A DNA stretch of 41,553 bases from a virus. Of the stretch, positions 5,075-35,967 are shown one piece after another. Positions within the stretch are counted from its first letter, which is position 1; every line of letters begins with the position of its first letter. Under the pieces are notes generated by a model. The model worked only from the letters and a program-made list of their open reading frames with translations, had not been told where the DNA came from and ran no database searches. The stretch is from UHGV virus genome UHGV-0389665, one strand, 5' to 3'. The position numbers were made by a program, and so were the translations under genes.

Positions 5075-5686
5075 ATGAGCTCATATACAAATGCGTTAGA
5101 AGATGGCATAGAGACTATCCCTAATAATAGGGGAGATTGGTATATGATTCCCTGCGAAGTTTGCGGGCGCAAAATACGAAGTACTCAGTACAGCAGGAAA
5201 AGAACGTATCTTTGTGATTATTGCAAAGGTGTGATTAAAGAGAAAGAAAAAGTTCAAATTCCTTCTACGGAGACTAAGTATGATAGACGTTTTAATTCTG
5301 CGGTTGAGAATATAAGAAAAGCGGTAAAGGATTTTAAAAGCTATGAAAAAGCTATCGAAGTTGCTAAAGGAAGGTCATATCAGTACGGGAGTATACCGGA
5401 AGCTATGGTTGCAATTGAGCTTTTGAAAAATAAATATAAAATAGTCCCACAGCAGAAAATTGGAAAGTATAAAGTAGATTTTGTTATTCCTGAAATAAAG
5501 GTAGTTTTAGAGGTGGATGGGAAACTGTATCACTCAGATATTCGAGCCGAAGGAGAAAGAGACTTTGTTATCCATCAATCATTAGGGATAAAATGGATGG
5601 TGATTCATTACCCGGCGGAATATGTTACAAAAGATATTACGAAACTCGTTCCATTTATTAAAGAGTACATAAAAGGGAATATTTAG
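5075..5686 (+). CDS. DUF559/Vsr-like (PD-(D/E)XK fold) endonuclease-domain protein with N-terminal CxxC...CxxC zinc ribbon
   Basis: N-terminal zinc ribbon CEVCGRK...CDYCKG. C-terminal VDFVIPEIKVVLEVDGKLYHSDIRAEGERDFVIHQSLGIKWMVIHY matches the DUF559 D..H...D..R..L..G..V.R pattern. RBS AAGAGGA 7 nt before ATG 5075. AT-rich gene. Confidence 0.6.
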   Translation: MSSYTNALEDGIETIPNNRGDWYMIPCEVCGRKIRSTQYSRKRTYLCDYCKGVIKEKEKVQIPSTETKYDRRFNSAVENIRKAVKDFKSYEKAIEVAKGRSYQYGSIPEAMVAIELLKNKYKIVPQQKIGKYKVDFVIPEIKVVLEVDGKLYHSDIRAEGERDFVIHQSLGIKWMVIHYPAEYVTKDITKLVPFIKEYIKGNI

Positions 5687-5699
5687 CGAAATTGGGCCT

Positions 5700-5727
5700 A
5701 CCGGAAACGGAGGCCTTTTTCATTGTC
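5700..5727 (+). terminator. intrinsic terminator after the endonuclease gene
   Basis: GGCCTACCGGAAACGGAGGCC hairpin followed by TTTTTC. Confidence 0.5.
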
Positions 5728-5811
5728 CCTGTCGGGTGAAACCTAGACTGGCGGGGTCCTCCTTTCCCATCAACATCTCTTCAAAAGATACGTATAACAT
5801 GTATTAAACAC

Positions 5812-5840
5812 TTGACAATACGTATAGTACGTGCTATAAT
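5812..5840 (+). promoter_or_regulatory. consensus sigma-A promoter (TTGACA-17-TATAAT) for hicAB with palindrome ACGTATAGTACGT in the spacer
   Basis: TTGACA at 5812-5817, a 17-nt spacer and TATAAT at 5835-5840. The 13-bp perfect palindrome in the spacer is a candidate HicB operator. A related TACGTATA motif is at 5789-5797. Confidence 0.6.
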
Positions 5841-5861
5841 ATAATTAGAAGGAGGGAAGAG

Positions 5862-6044
5862 ATGAGGTTTAGAGAAGTAGAAAGATTGGTTTTACAAGAT
5901 GGATGGTACGAAGTAAAACAGGTTGGCTCACATCATCAATACAAACATCCAACCAAACCTGGAAAGGTTACGATACCAGAACATAAAGGGAAGGACATAA
6001 ACCCAACGGTTGTAAAATCAATTCTCAAGCAGGCGGGGCTGTAA
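5862..6044 (+). CDS. hicA: HicA-family mRNA interferase toxin
   Basis: 60 aa, MRFREVERLVLQDGWYEVKQVGSHHQYKHPTKPGKVTIPEHKGKDI, the characteristic HicA sequence. GGAGGG RBS. Confidence 0.85.
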   Translation: MRFREVERLVLQDGWYEVKQVGSHHQYKHPTKPGKVTIPEHKGKDINPTVVKSILKQAGL

Positions 6045-6078
6045 AGCCCCAAAGCCTGTACTTAAAGGAGGTGAACCA

Positions 6079-6483
6079 ATGAAATTAGTTTATCCAGCTA
6101 TATTTACACCCTATGAAGACGGCACCGGTGGTTACGCCGTAGAATTTCCAGACCTGCCGGGATGTGTAACTGGCGGGGACGACATGGCAGAGGCTATCTT
6201 CATGGCAGAGGATGCTGCAAGCGGATGGGTGTTAACAGAGCTTGAGGATGGAAAGAAAGCACCAAAGGCATCTGACTTCAAGGCAATCAGCACGGATTCT
6301 GGTCAGTTCGTAAACATGGTTGCTTTGGACATGGATTTATATGCTGCTAAGTATGGAAGCAAAGCCGTAAAGAAGACACTTACCATTCCGGCATGGCTTA
6401 ACACCTATGTGGAAGAAAACAATATAAGCTGTTCTACCGTACTGCAGGAAGCATTGAGCAGGATGGCAGAATCATCAATGTAA
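6079..6483 (+). CDS. hicB: HicB-family antitoxin
   Basis: MKLVYPAIFTPYEDGTGGYAVEFPDLPGCVTGGDDMAEAI, a typical HicB N-terminal domain. Lies immediately downstream of hicA with an AAGGAGG RBS. Confidence 0.85.
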   Translation: MKLVYPAIFTPYEDGTGGYAVEFPDLPGCVTGGDDMAEAIFMAEDAASGWVLTELEDGKKAPKASDFKAISTDSGQFVNMVALDMDLYAAKYGSKAVKKTLTIPAWLNTYVEENNISCSTVLQEALSRMAESSM

Positions 6484-6656
6484 CAATAAGACCTCATTTC
6501 GGGCGTTCAGTTATCTGGGCGCCTTCCCTTATGCAGTGAAAGATGGGTGTTAAGTTGCTTAAATCATGTAAATGATGCGGCCGCAATTCCGCCTAAGTGG
6601 TTAAGAATTTGTATACAATTTTATATCCGGGATACACTATCACCGAGGTGATAAAA

Positions 6657-6812
6657 ATGGCGCAGAAAGAACATAATTCAGCAAGCGAGTTAGAAGCAAA
6701 GGCTAAGGTAGTAGAAACGTTCAATCCTCATTGGAATGAGGGAGAGTTTTTAGGACCGAATACCTTGAGACAGAAAAAAGATATTGATAAATACGGAGAA
6801 GAGGAGTCCTGA
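6657..6812 (+). CDS. hypothetical small protein
   Basis: ATG at 6657 preceded by a GAGGTGA RBS. The track ORF extends to 6597 but has no RBS there. Confidence 0.35.
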   Translation: MAQKEHNSASELEAKAKVVETFNPHWNEGEFLGPNTLRQKKDIDKYGEEES

Positions 6813-6854
6813 GGGCTTCTCTTTTTCTATACCCAAAACAAGGAGGTGAGCCAG

Positions 6855-7406
6855 ATGGCATTAACGCCCAAACAGAAAATATTTGCAGATGAATACCTGA
6901 TAGACCTCAATGCCACCAGGGCTTACAAGGTGGCGTATCCTAGTTGTAAGAAGGATGATGCAGCGGCAGTCAACGGAAGCAAGCTGCTAAGAAATACTAA
7001 GGTCGCAGAATACATACAGGAACGCATGAAGGAACGCTCAAAACGCACAGAAATCACTCAGGACCGCGTACTACAGGAACTGGAGAAACTGGTCTTGTTC
7101 GACATCAGGAAATTGTTTGACAGTAATGGAAAACCAGTAGATATATCAATGCTTGATGATGACACTGCCGCCTGTATTGCAGGGCTGGAAGTGGTGGATT
7201 ATTTCGAAGGGGCAGGAGAGGACAGGGAGTTTGCAGGATATGTAAAAAAGTATAAACTGACTGATAAATTAAGGGCAATTGAACTGATGGGCCGTCACTT
7301 TGGCATGTTTAAGGACAAAGTAGAACTGTCAGGACAAGTTGATACCACAAACCCATATGCTGGCCTAACAACTGAAGAACTGAAGAGGCTGATCCATGGT
7401 GGATAG
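6855..7406 (+). CDS. terminase small subunit
   Basis: ALTPKQKIFADEYLIDLNATRAYKVAYP is a typical N-terminal DNA-binding motif of phage small terminases. AAGGAGG RBS. Directly precedes the large subunit. Confidence 0.8.
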   Translation: MALTPKQKIFADEYLIDLNATRAYKVAYPSCKKDDAAAVNGSKLLRNTKVAEYIQERMKERSKRTEITQDRVLQELEKLVLFDIRKLFDSNGKPVDISMLDDDTAACIAGLEVVDYFEGAGEDREFAGYVKKYKLTDKLRAIELMGRHFGMFKDKVELSGQVDTTNPYAGLTTEELKRLIHGG

Positions 7407-8793
7407 ACATGAACTGGCAATCCAGGGCGCCAAAATAGAGCTTGCAAGACGCGAGTTCTTTTTTTATTGCCATTTGAAAGCGCCAGACTTCTACAGAGAG
7501 GATCGGAAGTATCTGGTTGATCTCTGCACAGACTTTCAGGAGTTTATGGAGTCTGATGATGAAGTGATGGTATTGAATCTTCCTCCGCGCCACGGAAAGT
7601 CAAGGACTGCAGGCTTATTTGTGGAATGGGTACTGGGCAATGATCAGACAGCTAAGGTCATGACCGGTTCTTACAATGAGACATTATCCACAATGTTCTC
7701 CAAAAACGTCCGAAACGATATCATGGAGGAAAAGGCCGATGAGAACCGGATTATATTCTCAGATATCTTTCCCGGCGTCCGGATCAAGCGCGGTGACGGC
7801 GCCATGAACCTGTGGAGCCTGGAGAGCGGCTACAATAACTACCTGGCCACATCCCCAACAGGCACAGCCACTGGCTTTGGGGCATCACTGCTTATCATTG
7901 ACGACCTAATCAAAAACGCCGAGGAGGCCAACAATGAACTGACCAAGGAGAAGCACTGGACTTGGTTCACGGACACAATGCTGTCCCGTCTGGAGGAAGG
8001 CGGGAAGATCATCATCATTATGACCCGGTGGGCCAGTGATGACCTTGCAGGCCGGGCCCTGGAACATTTCAGGGAGGCCGGGGCAAAGGTACGTCACATT
8101 TCCATGAAGGCCCTGCGGGATGACGGGACCATGCTGTGCCCGGAGGTTTTATCGCGGAAGTCCTACGAGGCCAAGATCAAGGCAATGGGAGCCGATATAG
8201 CATCAGCCAACTATCAGCAAGAGCCGATTGATCTTAAGGGCAGACTGTACACCAGCTTCAAGACCTATTCAGGGGAGCTGCCACAGTTCAAGGAGATCAG
8301 GAATTACACGGACACCGCAGATACCGGTGAAGATTATCTGTGCAGCATTAACTATGGTGTGACCTTTGCCAACGAGGCCTATATACTGGATGTCTTATAC
8401 ACCAAGGATCCTATGGAGGTTACGGAACCGGCCACGGCCAGGATGCTGCTGGAAGGGCAAGTCAACGTAGCCAAGATTGAGTCTAACAATGGTGGGCGCG
8501 GGTTCGCCCGGAATGTGCGCCGCATACTGGAGCAGGAGCTGGGCAGCAATCATACCACGATAAAGTGGTTCACGCAGACACACAACAAACAGGCCAGGAT
8601 ATATTCCAACTCAGCCTGGGTTATGGAACACATATACTTCCCGGAGGATTGGAAGAATCGTTGGCCAGAGTACCATAATGCCATGATCAAATACCAAAGA
8701 GAAGGAAAAAACAAACATGATGATGCCCCAGATGCCACAACAGGTATTGCCGAGAACTGCAGCAAGGGCAGTGGGATGAAAGTTATGAAGTGA
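7396..8793 (+). CDS. terminase large subunit (PBSX-type ATPase/nuclease)
   Basis: Walker A-like LPPRHGKS. 465 aa. Position between the small terminase and the portal. Confidence 0.9.
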   Translation: MVDRHELAIQGAKIELARREFFFYCHLKAPDFYREDRKYLVDLCTDFQEFMESDDEVMVLNLPPRHGKSRTAGLFVEWVLGNDQTAKVMTGSYNETLSTMFSKNVRNDIMEEKADENRIIFSDIFPGVRIKRGDGAMNLWSLESGYNNYLATSPTGTATGFGASLLIIDDLIKNAEEANNELTKEKHWTWFTDTMLSRLEEGGKIIIIMTRWASDDLAGRALEHFREAGAKVRHISMKALRDDGTMLCPEVLSRKSYEAKIKAMGADIASANYQQEPIDLKGRLYTSFKTYSGELPQFKEIRNYTDTADTGEDYLCSINYGVTFANEAYILDVLYTKDPMEVTEPATARMLLEGQVNVAKIESNNGGRGFARNVRRILEQELGSNHTTIKWFTQTHNKQARIYSNSAWVMEHIYFPEDWKNRWPEYHNAMIKYQREGKNKHDDAPDATTGIAENCSKGSGMKVMK

Positions 8794-26515: not shown

Positions 26516-29500
26516 ATGATCACAGTATTATTTAAGGATGGATCTGACTATGGAGAGGCATCAGGCAGACTGTGGCAATGGGATTATGGTCAGACCCTGA
26601 GAATCCAGGGGCTGGATCTTCCGACCGCGGCGGAGATACATTTTTCCCTACAGCAGTCAGGCGGGGAGGCCGTAACCCGTATCGGCACTACTAGGGATGG
26701 CGTGACGGAGGTAGTGATTCCGGACAGCCTCCTGGAGGGGGACCAGGTACAGCCCTATTATATCCATGTGTGGGTGTACCTGGCGGATGAGACCAGCGGC
26801 CAGACTGCCAAGACTGCACAGATATGGATAAATACACGGTCTAAGCCAGAAGCGTTCGACAAGCCAGAGGAGGTAGAATTGTTTCGTGACGCCATTGCTG
26901 CGGTCAATAAAGCGGTTGAAAAGGCGGAAGCAGTTGGAACTGTAACTCCGGAACAAATATCTGTAGCTGTTGAATCTTACTTTGAATCAAATCCTGGAAC
27001 AGACATCAACGCCTTAGAGGAGGCTACCGGATTAGACTATGGGATTGTAATCAGCGAAGATATCCAGAAAAAAATATCAATGGATCATATGGTAGAATGT
27101 ATCATTAACCGTGCGATTGAACTGGGGTTGATCAATCCCGTCATCAGCGGCCTCTCCACATACTCCGTTGTCAATTGGTCAGATAATTGGAGTTTTACAA
27201 AAGATAACTCTACATATACAATCGTCAATCTCCCCCATACCTGCAACCAATCGGATGGGGCAAGCCAAAGTATGTACCGTGGGAAGACATGGTATAGTAA
27301 AGATTTAGTTGTATCCAATGATGATGGAACGAAGGTATTTTATATTATATTTGAAGCGGCCGGACAGAAATCCACTGTTTATGTAGACAACGTAGAGATT
27401 ATCAGTTATGAAGGCGGCTACACGCCCTTTATAGTTAAGCTTGCCAATCTTACATCCGGCGCACATAAAATAAAGATAATGTGTGATAATACTGCTGATA
27501 CTAACCTGATACCAGTATCAGCAGATTTCAACTTTAATAACGGGCTACATAGGGATGTCTATCTCTTTACCCAGTCATTGGTTGGCTTTGATGCAGTCGA
27601 ATTTGGTGATTCAAGAATGCACATTATTCCATCCGTTGTTACAATTGGCAGCACTAGCAATGCCAGCGCCAAGTTGTCTATAAAGGCTAAAATAAATAAT
27701 ACCGGAGTAAAAAACATCAATGCGGTTATCCGAATGACACTGTATGAGAGATCGACCGGGAATACAATACTCTCTGATTCTGAAAATGTTATGCTGCCAT
27801 CTTCCGGAAGTTACAATTATGATGCCACATTTGACGTAACCTCTGTACATTTATGGAATGGTATTAAGGATCCCTTCCTATATATCGTCAAGCTGGATCT
27901 TCTCGTATATGGTGATATTCTGGTAGACACACTCTCCGACCGCATTGGTTTCCGCAAAATATCTCTGGATGAAGCAAACGGCTTTCTACTGAATGATAAA
28001 AGCTACCCGCTGAGAGGCGTTGCAATGCATCAGGATTATCCGGGAGTCATGTCTGCTATGACCAAAGACTGCTTTGATGCTGACTACTCTACCGTGATTG
28101 ATATTGGCTGTAATGTAGTTAGGCTGGCTCATTACCCGCACGATAAATATGCATTTCAAAAATGTGATGAACTCGGCCTGATTGTACAGACTGAAATTCC
28201 ATGGGTGAATCATTGCGGCGTAAATGCCACTCAGGAATACTATGACTGCATAAAAACCAATCTGGCAAGTATGATAAGAAATCACTACAACCACCCCTCC
28301 ATTGTTTTCTGGGGACTTTCCAATGAACTGAATGGAAGCCACTGGAAAGGCGGCGGAGATCCACAAGGAGGTTATAGCTATTCAAAAGCGCTGGAATGGA
28401 ATAACCTTTTGTACACATATGCAAAGACACTGGATAGCACCAGGTTTATTGGTTTTGTTGCACATCCAAACACCTTTAACAATACCCCGGCAAATTCGGC
28501 TGATTGGTCGGCTGATTGGATCGGACTCAATCTATATTATGGATGGTACTATGGTAATTTTAATGGGCTTACTACTGCCCTGGATCATTATCACAACCAT
28601 AGGCCTTTTCTCGCATTAACAGAATATGGCGCCGGTGGGAATCCAGCAACCCACAGCGAGACTCCTTTGACAACCACCACAACCGGAACCGGCGGAGCTG
28701 TTCATGATGAAGAGTATCAGAATCTATTCCACGAGTCTCACTTAGAGCAGATCCAAGCCAAGCCATGGCTGGTATTCACCTCGCTCTGGGTACTGTTTGA
28801 TTTTGCGGTATCCGGGAGAAACGAGGGCCGGATGCCCTATACAAACAATAAAGGGCTCATCACGCGGGATAGACAGGTTAAGAAAGATTCCTTTTTCTTA
28901 TATAAGGCTGCCTGGAACCCTGAACCGATGATCTACATTACAAGCCGCCGATTTACTGCAGTGCGTCCAGATACAATATCCATCAAGGTCTATGCGAACA
29001 CGGACTCGGTATCACTTTACCGGGCAGATGGGACCACATTGATCGCCACACTTACCACAGCTACAAAATGTGGCGTTGTCTGGGAGTTTAATAATGTCTC
29101 CTTCTCTTCCTCTACATCCGATGAAGTCTTTGTCGTAAAAGGCACCAAGAATGGTATTGAAGTAAGGGATGAAGTTACCTTCTATCATGAAGTGCAAGAA
29201 GCACCTGGACCAGAATATGATTATCATGTTGACATTGACTTTACCGGCTCAAATGACAACCTTGTTGCCAATGATAAAATGGGACATGCAACAGTTAGCC
29301 TGTCAGGTTTTACTGGTATTGCAACATCCGGATTTAATTCCGCCGGATATCTAAATAATACAGACGGCACCGGTTTGGTTACTATAAGTAATCTTGGACT
29401 TGATCAATTATCTGGTCCCGTTGAAATCGGTATGGAGTTTGCGGATTTCTCATTCACTACAATAAACCACAGAGGTCGATTCATCATGATGAATGATGAT

Positions 29501-31078
29501 ATATATGACTGCTATGTGATATGCGATGATGATTCAAGAAAGTACATTGCTATTGAATATACAAATGACGATAATACTACAGTTGTAGGAAGAACACCGC
29601 AGCTTAGCACACAGCATTCCTATAGCAATCTTAAGCTGACCATGCGCTTTGACGATATTTCCCAGCCTTGCTCATCTTTCCGATATACCCGTACACCGTC
29701 TGGAGGCACGGAAGAAGAAATCGTTGTCTCAGAGATGAATGACTATAATACGCCTGGAACGACCCAGCCATTAAGTCACTTCACCCGTGCTGCAATCACT
29801 GGAAACAGTATATACCTATTGAACCGATCAGCGAAGGATCGTCCTTTAAAAGCAACTCTTAAACGTTTCTTTATAAGAACGGAGAAAACCGGACGTTACA
29901 TTTCAGCTACTTATAGCAATAAAACTCCGGCAGTTGGAGACACGGTTGATCAATCATTAATAAATGTTACCCTAACAGAGGCAGACGGGACAAAACAGAC
30001 CATATCAGATTTTACGATCACAGAAGCTGATCTCATATTAAAAGCGGGAATAAACACTTTTACTATAAATCATGATGGGCTTACATGTATCCTATCAATC
30101 CTGGTAGGTACCAGCTTAGTTATAACTCGGCAGCCAGAGAATGTCACAGCAAATGCTTGTGAATATGCATCCTTTGATATTGAAGCTACTGGTACAGACA
30201 TGTCCTATCAATGGAAATATTATACAAACAACAAATGGATGGATGCATCTACGGGAGCATCGTTAACGGTTGAAGCCTTAGGTGTACGCAATGGCAGACA
30301 ATATAAGTGTGTAGTATCAGATATTTTCGGGAATAGCGTTGAATCAAATGTTGCAACCTTGACAGTCAATACGCCAACAGCTGAGCAATATTACGACTTT
30401 GGCAGGAAGATAGCATATGTTCCACTATCTGGCCTAAATGAAAACAGCACTGTACTGGCTACCATTGAAGGATATTCCTATCCATCAAAAGACAACATCG
30501 GGGGTACTCACATGATCACCAGCAAGGCTCCGAGTAATAACACCGGCACCTGTGGCGTTACAATACAGTTTAACGCTGATACGTATGAATCCTTTTATCT
30601 ATGTATGAATCATACTCCATCCTCTCAAAGCGCGAATGTAGAGCGATATAGCAGGGTGTTCAAAACGGATCCATCTATACTGAAGTCTTATCCATTGACG
30701 GTATTATTGACACAGGATACATTTAAAACAAACTATGATGAAGTATCGGAATACAATGCAATTCCATCTCCTGGTACCCTCCAAAAATACTCTGGATATC
30801 TATACATAAATACGGGTGATAGAAAAACATCAGTAACAAAGAATCCTGAATACTATACTACAAGTCAATCTCTTACGGAAGCGATAGCAAGTGGAGAGCA
30901 ATACTATAACTTTGATACACTGAAAATCAGTAGACTAAAAGTATGGAAGGACAGGAAATATATCAGTATATCAGAAGCATTGGAATCGGCAGTTACCCCG
31001 GATATTGATATACAGATCGGGGACGATGGATTACCCTATAATGCCGGAACAAGCGGAGAATTGGTATGTAGCTTATAA
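26516..31078 (+). CDS. 1520-aa virion-associated protein: BppU-like N-terminal domain, glycoside hydrolase family 2 catalytic core, and bacterial Ig-like domain
   Basis: GH2 TIM-barrel motifs VVRLAHYPHD, NHPSIVFWGLSNELNG (acid/base NE) and LALTEYGAGG (nucleophile E) are roughly at nt 27930-28920. The Ig-like segment YQWKYYTNNKWMDASTGASLTVEALGVRNGRQYKCVVSDIFGNS is at about nt 30080-30330. No signal peptide. GGAGG RBS. Confidence 0.8.
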   Translation: MITVLFKDGSDYGEASGRLWQWDYGQTLRIQGLDLPTAAEIHFSLQQSGGEAVTRIGTTRDGVTEVVIPDSLLEGDQVQPYYIHVWVYLADETSGQTAKTAQIWINTRSKPEAFDKPEEVELFRDAIAAVNKAVEKAEAVGTVTPEQISVAVESYFESNPGTDINALEEATGLDYGIVISEDIQKKISMDHMVECIINRAIELGLINPVISGLSTYSVVNWSDNWSFTKDNSTYTIVNLPHTCNQSDGASQSMYRGKTWYSKDLVVSNDDGTKVFYIIFEAAGQKSTVYVDNVEIISYEGGYTPFIVKLANLTSGAHKIKIMCDNTADTNLIPVSADFNFNNGLHRDVYLFTQSLVGFDAVEFGDSRMHIIPSVVTIGSTSNASAKLSIKAKINNTGVKNINAVIRMTLYERSTGNTILSDSENVMLPSSGSYNYDATFDVTSVHLWNGIKDPFLYIVKLDLLVYGDILVDTLSDRIGFRKISLDEANGFLLNDKSYPLRGVAMHQDYPGVMSAMTKDCFDADYSTVIDIGCNVVRLAHYPHDKYAFQKCDELGLIVQTEIPWVNHCGVNATQEYYDCIKTNLASMIRNHYNHPSIVFWGLSNELNGSHWKGGGDPQGGYSYSKALEWNNLLYTYAKTLDSTRFIGFVAHPNTFNNTPANSADWSADWIGLNLYYGWYYGNFNGLTTALDHYHNHRPFLALTEYGAGGNPATHSETPLTTTTTGTGGAVHDEEYQNLFHESHLEQIQAKPWLVFTSLWVLFDFAVSGRNEGRMPYTNNKGLITRDRQVKKDSFFLYKAAWNPEPMIYITSRRFTAVRPDTISIKVYANTDSVSLYRADGTTLIATLTTATKCGVVWEFNNVSFSSSTSDEVFVVKGTKNGIEVRDEVTFYHEVQEAPGPEYDYHVDIDFTGSNDNLVANDKMGHATVSLSGFTGIATSGFNSAGYLNNTDGTGLVTISNLGLDQLSGPVEIGMEFADFSFTTINHRGRFIMMNDDIYDCYVICDDDSRKYIAIEYTNDDNTTVVGRTPQLSTQHSYSNLKLTMRFDDISQPCSSFRYTRTPSGGTEEEIVVSEMNDYNTPGTTQPLSHFTRAAITGNSIYLLNRSAKDRPLKATLKRFFIRTEKTGRYISATYSNKTPAVGDTVDQSLINVTLTEADGTKQTISDFTITEADLILKAGINTFTINHDGLTCILSILVGTSLVITRQPENVTANACEYASFDIEATGTDMSYQWKYYTNNKWMDASTGASLTVEALGVRNGRQYKCVVSDIFGNSVESNVATLTVNTPTAEQYYDFGRKIAYVPLSGLNENSTVLATIEGYSYPSKDNIGGTHMITSKAPSNNTGTCGVTIQFNADTYESFYLCMNHTPSSQSANVERYSRVFKTDPSILKSYPLTVLLTQDTFKTNYDEVSEYNAIPSPGTLQKYSGYLYINTGDRKTSVTKNPEYYTTSQSLTEAIASGEQYYNFDTLKISRLKVWKDRKYISISEALESAVTPDIDIQIGDDGLPYNAGTSGELVCSL

Positions 31079-31135: not shown

Positions 31136-31978
31136 ATGACAGCATTATTAAGGAGACAGGCCGTGATTGACAAGTACGCAGAGATCATAGGCCGCAACAT
31201 ATACAGCCAGTCCCTGAGGGATTACTGCTATAAGGTATACAAGGACGGCAAATATTACAGTGATTGCTCATCATCCATCTGCTACGCTTATCAGCAGGCA
31301 GGGCAAGGCTTCGGGGTCACAAATACTGCGGGCATGTACAACTCTACCAAACTGACCACGGTGGATGCGGACATAGCCCAGGGTATCCCTGACACGTCCC
31401 GGTTACGATCAGGGGACATGCTGCTGTTTGCCGGTACGGATGCCAGCAGGCCAAAGCGGATCGGCCACGTGGAGATGTACTGTGGAGATGGTATTATCTG
31501 CGGACATGGCAGCGGAAGACCGTCCTACAAAGACCTGACCGCCTACTGCAAGAGCCGGTACAACTCCTGGGCGTCCGGGGGCTGGCGTAAGGGCCTGGTG
31601 GCTGTGAAGCGATACATACAGGATGATGCAGTGACGGAGCCGGAGCAGCCGAGGAGATCTGGATGGCAGGATAACACAGACGGTTCCCGAAGCTTTTACC
31701 TGGGCAACACCGGGGAGCCAGTCCGCAATAGCTGGTACCTGTATACAGACGGTAAGTGGTACTGGTTTGACGGCGCCGGTCGCATGGTGATCAACACCTG
31801 GTATCAGTACAAGGGTGACTGGTACTACCTGGGTGCTGATGGCGCAATGGTAAAGGGCCTGCAGGCCAGCGGTGGGAAGTGGTATTATCTGGATCAGGAC
31901 GGCAAGTTGTCCATGGATCCGGTGGTGTTGACGCCCGATCAGGACGGGGCGCTGCGGTGGCCGGGGATGGGAGCGTAA
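31136..31978 (+). CDS. endolysin: NlpC/P60- or CHAP-like cysteine peptidase with C-terminal cell-wall-binding (YG/W-rich) repeats
   Basis: Catalytic-type Cys in DCSSSICYAY and His residues in IGHVEMYCGDGIICGHG. C-terminal repeats GKWYWFDGAGRMV, GDWYYLGADGAMV and GKWYYLDQDGKL. Confidence 0.85.
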   Translation: MTALLRRQAVIDKYAEIIGRNIYSQSLRDYCYKVYKDGKYYSDCSSSICYAYQQAGQGFGVTNTAGMYNSTKLTTVDADIAQGIPDTSRLRSGDMLLFAGTDASRPKRIGHVEMYCGDGIICGHGSGRPSYKDLTAYCKSRYNSWASGGWRKGLVAVKRYIQDDAVTEPEQPRRSGWQDNTDGSRSFYLGNTGEPVRNSWYLYTDGKWYWFDGAGRMVINTWYQYKGDWYYLGADGAMVKGLQASGGKWYYLDQDGKLSMDPVVLTPDQDGALRWPGMGA

Positions 31979-31982
31979 TAAA

Positions 31983-32012
31983 AAAGACAGCGGGGATTAT
32001 CGGTCCTCGCCG
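31983..32012. terminator. hairpin terminator between the convergent lysin (+) and HTH (-) genes
   Basis: GACAGCGGGGA-ttatcggt-CCTCGCCGTC imperfect stem with an A6 run on the 5' side, which becomes a U-run for the minus-strand transcript. Confidence 0.4.
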
Positions 32013-32013
32013 T

Positions 32014-32238
32014 CTACTTTGTGGGAAAGTGTGACTTGATATCACTGCACCCACATATATAATCCATGCTGACATCATAATGCTTTGCAAGCTTGATCAT
32101 AGATTCAAGCGGGATCCTGGTATTGCCCAGTTCGTAATCCGCATAAGTCCGCTGGCCCACATGCAGGATACTGGCAATGTAGGTCTGTGTATATTCATGG
32201 TCCTCTCGCAGTGACCGTAATCGCGTTGTGTAATGCAT
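32014..32238 (-). CDS. XRE-family helix-turn-helix transcriptional regulator
   Basis: 74 aa. LRSLREDHEYTQTYIASILHVGQRTYADYELGNTRIPLESMIKLAKHYDVSMDYI is a classic HTH_3 motif. Confidence 0.8.
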   Translation of the reverse strand: MHYTTRLRSLREDHEYTQTYIASILHVGQRTYADYELGNTRIPLESMIKLAKHYDVSMDYICGCSDIKSHFPTK

Positions 32239-32257
32239 GGTATACCTCCATCCACAT

Positions 32258-32331
32258 TGTACCCTAGAGTTATATACTCTATTGACTTTTAGAGTTATAA
32301 ACTCTAAAATAATACGTAAAGTGAAGGGGGG
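32258..32331. promoter_or_regulatory. divergent control region with two perfect palindromes TAGAGTTATATACTCTA and TTAGAGTTATAAACTCTAA (candidate operators of the adjacent HTH regulator)
   Basis: The palindromes are at about 32263-32279 and 32288-32306, separated by TTGACTTT (-35-like). They lie between the minus-strand HTH gene and the plus-strand 32349/32439 ORF. Confidence 0.55.
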
Positions 32332-32438
32332 GAATAGACATCATTATTATGGAAAGAACAGAGAATAAATACCATAATTTACCACATCCTTTTTGGTGGA
32401 TACGGCAGTACAATGTCCTTATAAAGGAGGGGATAGGT

Positions 32439-32606
32439 ATGGATAAAAAGCGAGAGGACAAGCCGCCAGAAGAACCTGACGAAGAGGAACTACTGAAAGA
32501 GTATGAATGGGCTGAGAAACACGTTCCAGATGATGTGATCCCGAAGCCGAAGCCGGGTGAATTTGAGAGGATTTGGAGAAGGATCCAGGAAGAAGGGAAG
32601 CAGTAA
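32439..32606 (+). CDS. small acidic hypothetical protein
   Basis: AAGGAGGGG RBS then ATG 32439, giving 56 aa rich in E/D/P. The track ORF is extended to 32349. Confidence 0.4.
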   Translation: MDKKREDKPPEEPDEEELLKEYEWAEKHVPDDVIPKPKPGEFERIWRRIQEEGKQ

Positions 32607-32665
32607 CACCTTGTCTGTCTGTCCCATATAATATAGTACAAACTATATTAGAGGAGGAGAAAAGA

Positions 32666-32881
32666 ATGTGTTGCTGTAGATGTTGTTGTAGATGCTGCTG
32701 TTGCTGCCCGTGGTGGTTCAGTTCTGGTGGAGGAAATAACTGGGGCGGAAACTGGGGTAACAATTGGGACCCATGCGCCAATGAGAGGCGTTGGGCATAT
32801 CGGGAAGGTTTTAATGATGGTTATAGAGTAGGATTTGAAGACGGGAGATGGAATAGGCGTCCATGTCCACGGTCAAACTAA
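32666..32881 (+). CDS. 71-aa poly-cysteine / Gly-Asn-Trp-repeat peptide
   Basis: Strong RBS GAGGAGGAG 8 nt upstream of ATG 32666. The product is MCCCRCCCRCCCCCPWWFSSGGGNNWGGNWGNNWDPCANERRWAYREGFNDGYRVGFEDGRWNRRPCPRSN. Confidence 0.45.
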   Translation: MCCCRCCCRCCCCCPWWFSSGGGNNWGGNWGNNWDPCANERRWAYREGFNDGYRVGFEDGRWNRRPCPRSN

Positions 32882-32925
32882 AATGTAACGAGGCGGGTAC
32901 CGGATGACCGGGCCCGCCAATCGCT

Positions 32926-33192
32926 TTAATCTACATCATATGCCTCGGACATCAAGCGGATTCCAAGGCGTATACCTTCAATAAACCCTTCCTCTTGACC
33001 GGCAACTAAGAGATTCATCTGAAGATCCATTAATTCCTCAAATTGATCATGTAATTCTGATGGCAGCTTAGCAATGAAATTCTGCTGTGCTATGTATGCC
33101 TGTTCTCTGATCAGAGAATACTTTTCCGACCGGCGCCCTACTGAATCTGCTGGTATAAGTCCACCATTATATATTTCTCTTATTAAATTCAT
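32926..33192 (-). CDS. hypothetical 88-aa protein
   Basis: AAGGAGG RBS 7 nt before ATG (MNLIREIYNGG...). The track ORF extends 18 codons further upstream. Confidence 0.45.
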   Translation of the reverse strand: MNLIREIYNGGLIPADSVGRRSEKYSLIREQAYIAQQNFIAKLPSELHDQFEELMDLQMNLLVAGQEEGFIEGIRLGIRLMSEAYDVD

Positions 33193-33304: not shown

Positions 33305-33553
33305 AATCTACCAGTTTCTACTACCCTATTAGACACAATAAAGTCACAAATACACTGAAAAACAACGCAAAACCGTACTTTTTGGACGGTAAATATTAAC
33401 AACACTTTAATGTTGGGTGATTTTCAGAAGGGTAGGAATTAGTACTAAAATGGTTGAAAAGGGTAGGTTTTATAAGGGTTTGCGGGGATTCGGTAACCTT
33501 CTTGAATCTACCGCTTTCTACTAGGTTCTTGGGGCCTATTGGTCACAGTAAAG
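33305..33553. repeat. about 50-bp imperfect direct repeats (AATCTACC..TTTCTACTA...AAAGTCACAAAT) immediately 3' of the integrase gene; candidate integrase arm-type sites / attP region
   Basis: Copy A is at 33305-33352 and copy B at 33503-33553. Copy B abuts the integrase stop codon. Confidence 0.45.
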
Positions 33554-34690
33554 TCACAAATTAATTTTTATCTTTTCGATTTCGTTTCTTAAATCCTCTA
33601 ACTCACGGTGGCCATAGACTTTATTTGTTACATCACCTTTGAAGGAATGGCCCATCATTCGCTTGCGATCGTTTTCTTTTACTTCGTATTTTTCACAAAG
33701 GCGTGAGAATGTATGTCTGCAATCATGCGGCGTGTGTTTTGGCTCTCCCTGAAGGTTAAGCCTTTCAAGTAATTCATCTTCTCGTGCACGAAATTCCCAT
33801 GCGCTACAGGTGAGAAGCCGATTATATTTTTCTATTCGGTGTTTTACCATAGGATAAATCAAGGAGTGGATCGGTACGGTGCGGTTTTTACCGGCATCTG
33901 TTTTTAGACCACCCATAAAATACTTATCCTTTAGATTGACTTCAAGGCCAATGTATTCCGATATGCGCCAACCAGAGTAACACATGATCAGAAGCATCTC
34001 TGCGGTATCATCCGATCTGTTTTCCCACAGTGTTTTTAACTCTGCATCGGTGAAGGGCACACCATGTTCATCATCATCATCCTTTTTGATGCTCACAAAC
34101 TGGCTATAATCTTTATCGCACCATCCCCGTCCATCCGCATACTTATACATCTGGCGGTACAGGTTCTTGATGAGCTCCAGGCTGGCATGTTTTAGAGGGC
34201 AGGCATCCAAGTTGTCCTGAAGATCCTTCGAGCGGATGGCCCGAAACTCTTTGTTATAAAGTACTTTGCAGTTCTTATATGCCGCTCTAATCGAGTTTTT
34301 GTTTGAGTTTGAGTATTTGTTCCCTTCAGCAAATTTATCGGCGTAGAATGCCTCGTAGACCTCTGAGAAGGTCTTTTCTGGCTCCTCCGGCTCAATTCCT
34401 TTGAGGCGGTTGTAATCGGCCAGAATCTTCAGTGTCAGGTTATCGAGATTCTTAGTCTCATCCGGCAGCTGCAGGGTGGCCTCCATTCCAGGGGTATAGG
34501 TGCCGGCCTTGTAAGACGTAAGGACGACAAAGCCCTTCATCCAGTCATCTACATAGCAGAGGGCAGGAGGGCGGTTGCCGTCAAGATCCGCTGGCGGGTG
34601 GACCGCATAGGCATTTTTGCGTTTCTTCCCCAGGTACCGGATGGATCCGTAACCATTGGGGAGCCGTGGGTGTTTTTTCCGTGTTGGCAT
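33554..34690 (-). CDS. int: tyrosine site-specific integrase
   Basis: 378 aa. The C-terminal catalytic region HDCRHTFSRL...MMGHS...VYGH carries the R..H..R..Y tetrad. Confidence 0.9.
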   Translation of the reverse strand: MPTRKKHPRLPNGYGSIRYLGKKRKNAYAVHPPADLDGNRPPALCYVDDWMKGFVVLTSYKAGTYTPGMEATLQLPDETKNLDNLTLKILADYNRLKGIEPEEPEKTFSEVYEAFYADKFAEGNKYSNSNKNSIRAAYKNCKVLYNKEFRAIRSKDLQDNLDACPLKHASLELIKNLYRQMYKYADGRGWCDKDYSQFVSIKKDDDDEHGVPFTDAELKTLWENRSDDTAEMLLIMCYSGWRISEYIGLEVNLKDKYFMGGLKTDAGKNRTVPIHSLIYPMVKHRIEKYNRLLTCSAWEFRAREDELLERLNLQGEPKHTPHDCRHTFSRLCEKYEVKENDRKRMMGHSFKGDVTNKVYGHRELEDLRNEIEKIKINL

Positions 34691-35319: not shown

Positions 35320-35967
35320 TTATTTTAGGCTTAAAGTAATTGTTTCTACTTTTGGATTATCCCAATTCCAGAGTTCTTTAATTTGTACGGTAATATCACT
35401 CATATCTGAAATTCTATAAGCTTTAGCAACATTAAGTGTTGTACCGGACATAACCTTCTTTGAATAGTTGTCAAAAGCTTCTTCTCGTTCATCGTATGAC
35501 AAGTATGCAGAATCACATTCAACACCATTTTGAAATACTGTAATAGAATAATCAGCCAAATACGCACCAGTAGGCTCGGTTTTCTTATTTGTATAGTCAT
35601 AGTAAAGCGCGACACAGGGGTAACCATCGTAATCAAAGGAATATACTTTATGGTCTGTATATTTAATAGAACAGGTGGCTATAGAAAAGTCGAATTTTGG
35701 CGCTTCCTGTGAAGCAATATAAACACCATCATTACCTACATAATAACCATCAGGAGTTGTGGTGTTGGAAAGCATAATACCGTTCTCGTCCATATAATAG
35801 CTTTTTCCAGCATCTTCAATCCAGCCGGTAGCAAAACTGCCATCGTCATTTTGATACATCCATTGACCGGCAGCTGGCGATACCCAGGTTCCAGCAAATG
35901 CGGTACTGCTTAATACCATGGACATTGCAAGCGCGGCGATAAATAATTTTATTTTTCTCATAAACAA
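35320..35967 (-). CDS. secreted protein with signal peptide, cell-wall-binding repeats and a C-terminal domain of unknown function (lysogeny-expressed cargo; superinfection-exclusion candidate)
   Basis: Signal peptide MFMRKIKLFIAALAMSMVLSSTAFA. Repeats GTWVSPAAGQWMYQNDDGSFATGWIEDAGKSYYMDENG. GGAGGG RBS. Sits between int and the ImmA/repressor pair. Confidence 0.7.
   Translation of the reverse strand: MFMRKIKLFIAALAMSMVLSSTAFAGTWVSPAAGQWMYQNDDGSFATGWIEDAGKSYYMDENGIMLSNTTTPDGYYVGNDGVYIASQEAPKFDFSIATCSIKYTDHKVYSFDYDGYPCVALYYDYTNKKTEPTGAYLADYSITVFQNGVECDSAYLSYDEREEAFDNYSKKVMSGTTLNVAKAYRISDMSDITVQIKELWNWDNPKVETITLSLK

Follow-up and report, generated by a model that had tools for sequence, protein, structure and literature searches.

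What role is played by a small cysteine-rich protein encoded between the lysin and the attachment site of a temperate phage, and under which conditions is its gene expressed? The question is raised by the virus genome UHGV-0389665, whose 41,553 nucleotides (nt) were analyzed in full (hereafter the window) and represent a whole temperate phage (1-41553) in the excised (attP) gene order. The gene concerned, here called the Cys gene, is located at 32666-32881 on the + strand. It encodes 71 amino acids (aa): a poly-Cys/Arg tract, a Gly/Asn/Trp linker and a conserved G-x3-G-x3-G-x3-G core. Our preferred reading, held with modest confidence, is that the product is a phage-borne, mother-cell-expressed, Cys-rich protein associated with the spore surface or coat, a functional analogue of CdeM and CdeC of C. 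difficile. Loci compared with the window are cited by number (L001, L002, and so on).

The 5' end of the open reading frame (ORF) consists of low-complexity TGT/TGC sequence and the NCBI annotation carries no gene call here, as would be expected if a TGY simple-sequence repeat had opened a frame by chance. Comparison with the Hungatella copy, however, revealed 26 synonymous and 4 non-synonymous differences (proportions of differing sites, pS 0.67 and pN 0.02), with 15 and 1, respectively, in the core alone, and the ratio of non-synonymous to synonymous substitution rates (dN/dS) is ~0.01-0.03. In all 37 distinct alleles found in the family, the variable Cys tract shares one reading frame with the core WDPCA-x-ERRWAYR-x-GFNDGY-x-VGFEDGR (also written WDPCA-ERRWAYR-GFNDGYRVGFEDG), and the ribosome-binding site, promoter and terminator are conserved as well. 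The chance-ORF explanation is refuted by the dN/dS values and the 37 in-frame alleles, and we give it virtually no weight. The exact 71-aa product was detected in at least three phage backgrounds with differing lysins or regulators; the ORF differs among them by 2-3 synonymous changes, and the flanks are 92-95% identical. On this comparative evidence the ORF is almost certainly a genuine gene under strong purifying selection. It is not called by the NCBI annotation, and its exact sequence is missing from the protein collection. The accession numbers of the neighboring proteins are consecutive with no room between them, which indicates that annotation pipelines skip the gene; several other loci likewise lack a call for it.

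The initial annotation of this region, made from the window alone, had drawn attention to the ORF as a poly-Cys peptide with a strong ribosome-binding site, no signal peptide and no recognizable family, and had left its conservation as a coding sequence in relatives to be checked. These points held, including the last. The sequence AGGAGG is found 8 nt upstream of the start, and neither a signal peptide nor a transmembrane segment is present. The count of 12 Cys among the first 14 residues has to be corrected to 11, interspersed with Arg, in a total of 13/71 (18%). Searches of the Cys protein against NCBIfam, PHROGs, PADLOC and PDB sequences gave no significant match, and Pfam returned only a sub-threshold hit to Yae1_N (15.3 bits vs. 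27.5, E = 0.017, residues 47-60). An exhaustive HMMER profile search of 1.84 billion representatives recovered the protein's own family and spurious repeats only. No paper or family model describing the family was found in Pfam, NCBIfam or the literature; a 2026 "CysRRep" preprint proved unrelated.

Scans of genomes, viromes and metagenomes identified homologues in Hungatella hathewayi DSM 13479, Enterocloster aldenensis, [Clostridium] clostridioforme, Clostridium sp., several metagenome-assembled genomes and 54 metagenome contigs. Three candidates were discarded: P0002 is a Nextera-adapter chimera (translated adapter DVYKRQ) and thus an assembly artefact, and P0003 and L013 are false matches driven by repeats. 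Judged by sequence, the family comprises undescribed small Cys-rich proteins of spore-forming Lachnospiraceae (Enterocloster, Hungatella and relatives). Alleles range from 61 to 137 aa, with an N-terminal tract of ~9 to 85 residues built from the units CCCR, CCR, NS, NCGG or GCGCGNNS; Cys accounts for 18-27% of residues, grouped in CC(C)R motifs, with as many as 29 Cys among 137 residues. Glycines of the core recur at i, i+4, i+8 and i+12 (G48, G52, G56 and G60 in the window). Near-identical strains represented by metagenome contigs L046-L056, with alleles of 89-105 aa, differ solely in how many NCGG and CCR units they contain, which indicates fast in-frame expansion and contraction of the repeats. 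Such in-frame repeat change occurs in some spore-surface proteins. In L003 a scaffold gap (run of N, ~8449-8460) with duplicated flanks directly adjoins the Cys gene 3' end; this genome holds two copies of the gene, which probably broke the assembly.

The best indication of when the gene is expressed comes from the sequence upstream. A candidate promoter, P2 (ACAC-n-TTGTC-n5-GTCC-CATAtaaTATA, 32606-32635, + strand), was recognized by its family-wide conservation and is of the sigma-K type. A spacer of 17 nt separates its -35 element AC (32606-32607) from the -10 element CATATAATA (32625-32633). The general form of the block, ACAC-n-TTGTC-n5-GTCC-CATAnnnTATA, was found in 21 of 22 distinct upstream sequences, ending ~32-37 nt before the ATG. 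The middle three positions of the -10 vary (TAA, TAG, CAA, CTA, TGA, TTA); CATA, TA and the AC 17 nt upstream are invariant. Window and Hungatella agree at 90% of positions in the block, while adjacent synonymous sites are near saturation. Sigma-K promoters have AC as their -35 element and sigma-E promoters ATA, with a -10 common to both, and the P2 promoter of C. difficile sigK consists of CATATAAT plus AC (Saujet et al., PMC3789822). The -10 of the window promoter is exactly CATATAAT and is combined with a -35 AC, and so fits both the sigma-K consensus and the C. difficile sigK promoter. The pattern AC-N16/17-CATAnnnTATA occurs 78 times in the 554 kb of DNA fetched, compared with 0-7 times in shuffled sequence; 59 of these sites precede Cys-family genes caught by our search pattern, and the remainder, bar 2, precede cotJA or MFCC-type variants of the family. 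Within the window this pattern has a single + strand occurrence. Taken together, these sequence data make it likely that P2 is a sporulation-type promoter, resembling those of the mother-cell factor sigma-K.

A 9-nt perfect inverted repeat, TAATATAGT-ACAA-ACTATATTA (32629-32650), overlaps the P2 -10 and the leader. It is conserved in close relatives only, not in distant family members, and might be an operator or form an mRNA hairpin in transcripts reading through from the upstream promoter P1. The repeat also caused the lone Rfam hit, a sub-threshold and spurious miRNA match.

Chromosomal relatives point to sporulation by a different route. cotJA-cotJB-cotJC is a Mn-catalase spore-coat operon. 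A distant subfamily, with the core WDPCAGvRxRAYRxGFxNGYWAGYNDA and often a second, C-terminal Cys cluster, has its gene next to and divergent from this operon in L014-17, L019/L073/L078, L065, L067 and L077. CotJA and CotJB are only 41-62% identical among these loci, which therefore represent separate lineages, at least five in all. The cotJA promoters beside family members, on the opposite strand, read AC-N17-CATA(A/G)ACTATAGTAGAAA in five lineages. In C. difficile, cotJ-like operons are sigma-K dependent (PMC3789822). The Cys genes of Hungatella and E. aldenensis have as their neighbor a degraded Spo0A_C gene with 47-71% identity to its phage counterpart, which suggests that these copies of the Cys gene are prophage-derived.

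Chromosomal homologues retain the terminator hairpin and, on the upstream side, ~45 nt of sequence, and in none of them is a helix-turn-helix (HTH), acidic-protein or DUF6809 gene found nearby. The terminator is a GC-rich hairpin (32889-32923, -23 kcal/mol) that serves two convergent genes in the window and is kept in the homologues with a compensatory G:C to A:T change (seen in L001). As expected of a moron, the Cys gene is flanked by P2 and a terminator; this unit stands alone in chromosomes. Very probably, on sequence grounds, the Cys gene is an autonomous unit with its own promoter and terminator. The arrangement of promoter, strong ribosome-binding site, ORF and hairpin terminator appears to constitute a moron, situated between lysin and attP in an Enterocloster citroniae phage.

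The initial annotation had interpreted the gap between lysin and integrase as a site of accessory cargo, occupied by a cassette in which an autoregulated XRE regulator controls a two-gene operon. The cargo interpretation was confirmed, as a block from 31981 to 32925 recurs in phage L004 with 95.5% identity behind a different lysin (BLAST). The left edge of the block coincides with a terminator-like hairpin after the lysin (31990-32010, + strand; homology with L004 begins at 31981), and the right edge with the hairpin at 32889-32923. Part of the proposed cassette does not travel with it: the convergent gene for an 88-aa DUF6809 protein (32926-33192, - strand) lies outside, since homology with L004 ends at 32925, just past the hairpin. 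Among related phages the cassette shows mosaic presence and absence, behind differing lysins and with differing neighbors. A BLAST search of the cassette region against phage genomes gave no match, and the GC content of the cassette does not set it apart from its surroundings. In every phage copy a gene for an acidic protein precedes the Cys gene. The two are not separated by a terminator, as a two-gene operon would require, but the Cys gene has its own promoter and occurs without the acidic gene and the regulator. Nor is the XRE protein an essential controller of the Cys gene: the window and L004 have HTH_3 as the divergent regulator, L003 has HTH_26, L012 and L020-24 have a ribbon-helix-helix (RHH) protein together with a Spo0A_C-only one, and chromosomal copies have none. 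The sequence comparisons suggest two layers, namely the autonomous Cys gene unit and a phage-specific front end composed of repressor, P1 and acidic gene.

The front end in the window begins with a 74-aa XRE/HTH_3 regulator (32014-32238, - strand), whose match to Pfam HTH_3 covers residues 7-61 (46 bits vs. a 23-bit cut-off, 5e-12). Both of the perfect palindromes described earlier in the control region are present, with revised limits. Operator O1 (TAGAGT-TATAT-ACTCTA, 17 nt, 32265-32281) has a center of 5 rather than 6 nt, only its 6-nt arms pairing. Operator O2 (TTTTAGAGTT-ATA-AACTCTAAAA, 32287-32309) is longer than thought, a perfect 10-3-10 palindrome that fills the P1 spacer. The operator sequence is confined to the cassette, with 2 exact sites in the 41.5-kb window vs. 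0.18 expected. P1 itself (TTGACT-17-TAAAAT, 32282-32310, + strand) was identified by a promoter scan as a sigma-A-type promoter for the acidic gene. Paired operators over such a promoter and a small HTH protein make it plausible that the latter is a repressor of the acidic gene. Repression of the acidic gene is the simplest reading of this arrangement, possibly together with control of read-through into the Cys gene. The scan gave nothing convincing for the HTH gene itself, so its autoregulation would follow from the geometry alone. The acidic protein has 55 aa (32439-32606, + strand) and its gene is always paired with the Cys gene in phages. An 85-aa reading of this ORF was rejected, as it has no ribosome-binding site and the additional N-terminus is missing in L003 and L020. 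The family is narrow and Enterocloster-restricted. The protein was modeled as two Pro-linked helices (predicted local distance difference test, pLDDT, 76), with no Foldseek match in PDB or BFVD and no significant match in PHROGs, NCBIfam, PADLOC or PDB sequence searches. By analogy, it might assist the basic Cys protein as its partner or chaperone, or be an anti-CRISPR (Acr)-like anti-defense protein under a repressor resembling the anti-CRISPR-associated (Aca) type; we do not choose between the two.

Sister phages place further sporulation-linked genes in the same region. A receiver-less, Spo0A_C-only protein of 113 aa (Pfam 2e-30) is encoded in L012 (4929-5270), L020-L024 (4162-4503) and L006 (5331-5666); its gene is divergent and upstream of the acidic and Cys gene pair. 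Ku and an ATP-dependent DNA ligase, the components of non-homologous end joining (NHEJ), are encoded directly downstream of the Cys gene in L020-L024 (~5486-7250) and L012 (6253-8009). In Bacillus, NHEJ is associated with spores. Sporulation-linked genes (Spo0A_C-only, Ku/ligase and Cys gene) are enriched in the cargo region between lysin and att of these phages. Gut phages of spore-formers have been reported to carry sporulation genes, including regulators, truncated spo0A, ykoV/Ku and cell-wall enzymes (PMC10294663), and both the Spo0A_C-only and the Ku classes of that survey are present in our sister phages. Coat or exosporium structural genes are not among its classes, and the word "coat" has 0 occurrences in it (PMC10294663). 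Phage carriage of sporulation genes is known for the classes listed above; the present case is of interest mainly as an unannotated, hypervariable family.

Among characterized systems, the nearest resemblance is to CdeM and CdeC. CD1581 and CD1067, which we take to be the cdeM and cdeC genes, respectively, are strongly sigma-K dependent and mother-cell specific in C. difficile. CdeM and CdeC are located in the exosporium and contain the repeats CNCCNCCRK, CCRQGKGK and NGNNGGNNNNC (NGNNGG) (PMC6101409). With our family they have in common a high Cys content in CC(N/R) repeats, G/N-rich repeats, the lack of recognizable domains and a lineage-restricted distribution. The Cys family differs in being far smaller (61-137 aa), in a Cys tract that starts at residue 2, in its WDPCA...GFxxGYxxGFxDG core and in phage carriage, and it is known here from sequence alone; no relationship to CdeM or CdeC appeared in the HMMER profile search, in which no direct pairwise comparison with CdeM was included. 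CotY/CotZ of the B. subtilis crust and ExsY of the B. cereus group exosporium are likewise Cys-rich, late mother-cell proteins that self-assemble and are stabilized by disulfides (PMC6101409). They share the Cys-rich character but are folded proteins of ~150-160 aa and not of low complexity. We know of no CotY, CotZ or ExsY on phages. In its layout, a promoter-ORF-terminator unit between lysis module and att that is mosaic among related phages, the Cys gene resembles other phage morons, except that its promoter is of the sporulation-sigma rather than the housekeeping type. Gly at every fourth residue and the weak Yae1_N match recall the deca-GX3 motif of Yae1/Lto1 (PF09811); only four glycines are present and the match is below cut-off, so that this is similarity at the motif level, with no evidence of homology. 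The same applies to a local EGFx[DE]GxRxG match between the Cys core and the GxxxG motif of DUF6809.

We propose that in a sporulating lysogen the mother-cell RNA polymerase with sigma-K would transcribe the Cys gene from P2, independently of the phage repressor. The protein, disordered on its own, would be deposited in the outer spore layers, where the N-terminal poly-Cys tract could be cross-linked via disulfides or metal bridges, in the manner of the exosporium and crust proteins CdeM/CdeC and CotY/CotZ, and the conserved Gly-x3 helix could mediate protein-protein packing. The hypervariability of the tract would stem from Cys, Asn and Gly repeats being gained and lost in frame. Transcription from the phage-only upstream layer, with its exchangeable repressor, operators over P1 and acidic gene, could read through into the Cys gene. 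The sequence comparisons show coding status and selection, the structure of the unit, the conservation of its promoter, synteny with cotJ and mosaic mobility. We infer sigma-K dependence, spore localization and cross-linking of the protein; as for a structural or cross-linking role, argued by analogy, the balance is about even.

Several observations weigh against a spore-coat protein. Synteny with cotJ is limited to the distant subfamily (~50% core identity), and the close, phage-type subfamily is not found beside cotJ. No sequence homology of the family to known spore proteins was detected in Pfam, NCBIfam, PDB or HMMER searches, and the AlphaFold model of the Cys protein is unusable (pLDDT 40.7). 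The -10 sequence CATATAAT embeds a perfect sigma-A -10, TATAAT, and the promoter scan also reads GTAACA-18-TATAAT at this site, so vegetative transcription from P2 is possible. The conserved spacer sequence TTGTC exceeds the needs of a sigma factor, and an additional, unknown regulator may therefore act there. Finally, since no terminator intervenes, P1 and its repressor may also control the Cys gene.

Vegetative expression is central to one competing explanation, in which the Cys protein is a metallothionein-like metal-binding protein or thiol buffer, transcribed from P1 or from a sigma-A reading of P2, that sequesters Cu, Zn or Cd or quenches electrophiles and oxidants. The Cys content, the clustered CC(C)R motifs and the TATAAT within P2 would all suit such a protein, and the lack of a predicted fold is typical of apo-metallothioneins. 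We nevertheless regard this as unlikely: no metal-responsive regulator or operator was found, Pfam and NCBIfam gave no metallothionein match, the family shows cotJ synteny, and the invariant C and the -35 AC that P2 has in common with cotJA promoters would be unnecessary for sigma-A. Metal binding as such is compatible with the spore-coat role, as a coat protein could also bind metal. Alternatively, the acidic protein could be the real cargo, an Acr-like DNA mimic with anti-defense function under an Aca-like repressor, with the Cys gene hitch-hiking as a captured chromosomal sporulation gene. Exchangeable small HTH or RHH repressors are a pattern known from acr-aca loci, and the promoter of the acidic gene is governed in this way, its operators overlapping the promoter near a prophage end; the protein is small, very acidic, two-helical, and belongs to a narrow, phage-restricted family. 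The regulator, however, is divergent rather than downstream and co-transcribed, neither sequence libraries nor Foldseek (PDB/BFVD) gave a homology or fold match to a known Acr, and it is the Cys protein that is better conserved in phages (99-100% vs. 70-90% for the acidic protein). Such a division of roles seems to us decidedly unlikely.

The possibility of a toxin/immunity pair or a small anti-phage module, raised in the initial annotation, found no support. It supposes that the XRE protein represses a two-gene operon whose acidic and basic Cys-rich products act together as effectors. A divergent HTH gene with two operators over P1, the constant adjacency of the two genes in phages with no terminator between them, the complementary charge of their products and the reputation of the lysin-att region as a cargo hotspot would all be in keeping with such a pair. 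It fails to explain why the Cys gene stands alone in chromosomes and next to cotJ, is preceded by a promoter common to the whole family, and persists when non-orthologous regulators take the place of the XRE protein; nor would a lone "toxin" be expected to be under purifying selection in many chromosomes. PADLOC and toxin-antitoxin models match the generic HTH only: in PADLOC the HTH protein weakly matches the HTH parts of the RmrA and capH models, and the acidic, Cys and DUF6809 proteins have 0 matches. We consider an effector pair very unlikely. As for a ribosomally synthesized and post-translationally modified peptide or bacteriocin, no modification enzyme, protease or transporter was present in any context examined, and the Cys tract is N-terminal with no leader.

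Spores are the between-host transmission route of many gut Clostridia. To our knowledge, hardly anything is known of spore surface proteins except in C. difficile and Bacillus. Should the spore-coat reading be correct, the Cys genes would represent a hitherto unrecognized family of sporulation proteins that are small, hypervariable, Cys-rich and missed by standard gene callers and by NCBI, with a compact and recognizable sigma-K-type promoter signature for Lachnospiraceae. The phage copy would be a concrete example of a phage-borne sporulation gene that is structural, not regulatory, and lysogenic conversion would affect the dormant stage instead of the vegetative cell. Changes in the repeat tract would alter spore cross-linking, adhesion, germination or transmission, and the effect of a prophage on spore properties would become directly testable in Enterocloster. 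More tentatively, and with doubts outweighing confidence, we suggest that gut Lachnospiraceae phages convert the spore surface of their lysogens through a sigma-K-driven, hypervariable poly-Cys coat or exosporium protein of this unrecognized family.

The DUF6809 protein next to the cassette, which also bears this NCBI name in E. citroniae, matches its Pfam model over positions 1-85 of 85 (65.5 bits vs. a threshold of 27). A 19-nt stretch of the Cys gene (32803-32821) is 84% complementary to one in the DUF6809 gene (32974-32992). Antisense pairing of the two genes was considered and rejected, as the complementarity reduces to the common EGFx(D/E)GxRxG Gly-x3 motif. Judging from this motif, heterotypic helix packing of the two proteins is conceivable.

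Across the whole window the gene order is primase/helicase, terminase, structural genes, lysin, cargo, attP, int, ImmA-like, cI-like, cro-like and antirepressor. An integrated prophage (L002, assembly GCA_003433945.1) is 99.8% identical to the window phage, and the NCBI names of the flanking proteins point to E. citroniae as the host. The endolysin (31136-31978, + strand) combines an NlpC/P60 domain with choline-binding repeats (Pfam), and a tyrosine integrase (33554-34690, - strand) was identified by library matches. The attP core lies at about 33497-33525, and homology with the L002 prophage stops at 33525. The att core and integrase-proximal arm recur as a degenerate second copy (33305-33351 vs. 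33505-33561, 78-89% identical), 200-210 nt upstream of attP proper; this copy could serve the integrase as an arm-type site or be what an earlier att/int junction left behind when cargo was acquired. A 1520-aa protein of the tail region (26516-31078), which according to the precomputed Pfam matches of L002 has domains of glycoside hydrolase family 2, is probably a receptor-degrading tail fiber or depolymerase. A gene between int and the ImmA/cI module (35320-35967, - strand), whose product of 215 aa is secreted and contains cell-wall or choline-binding repeats, is likely another lysogenic-conversion gene.

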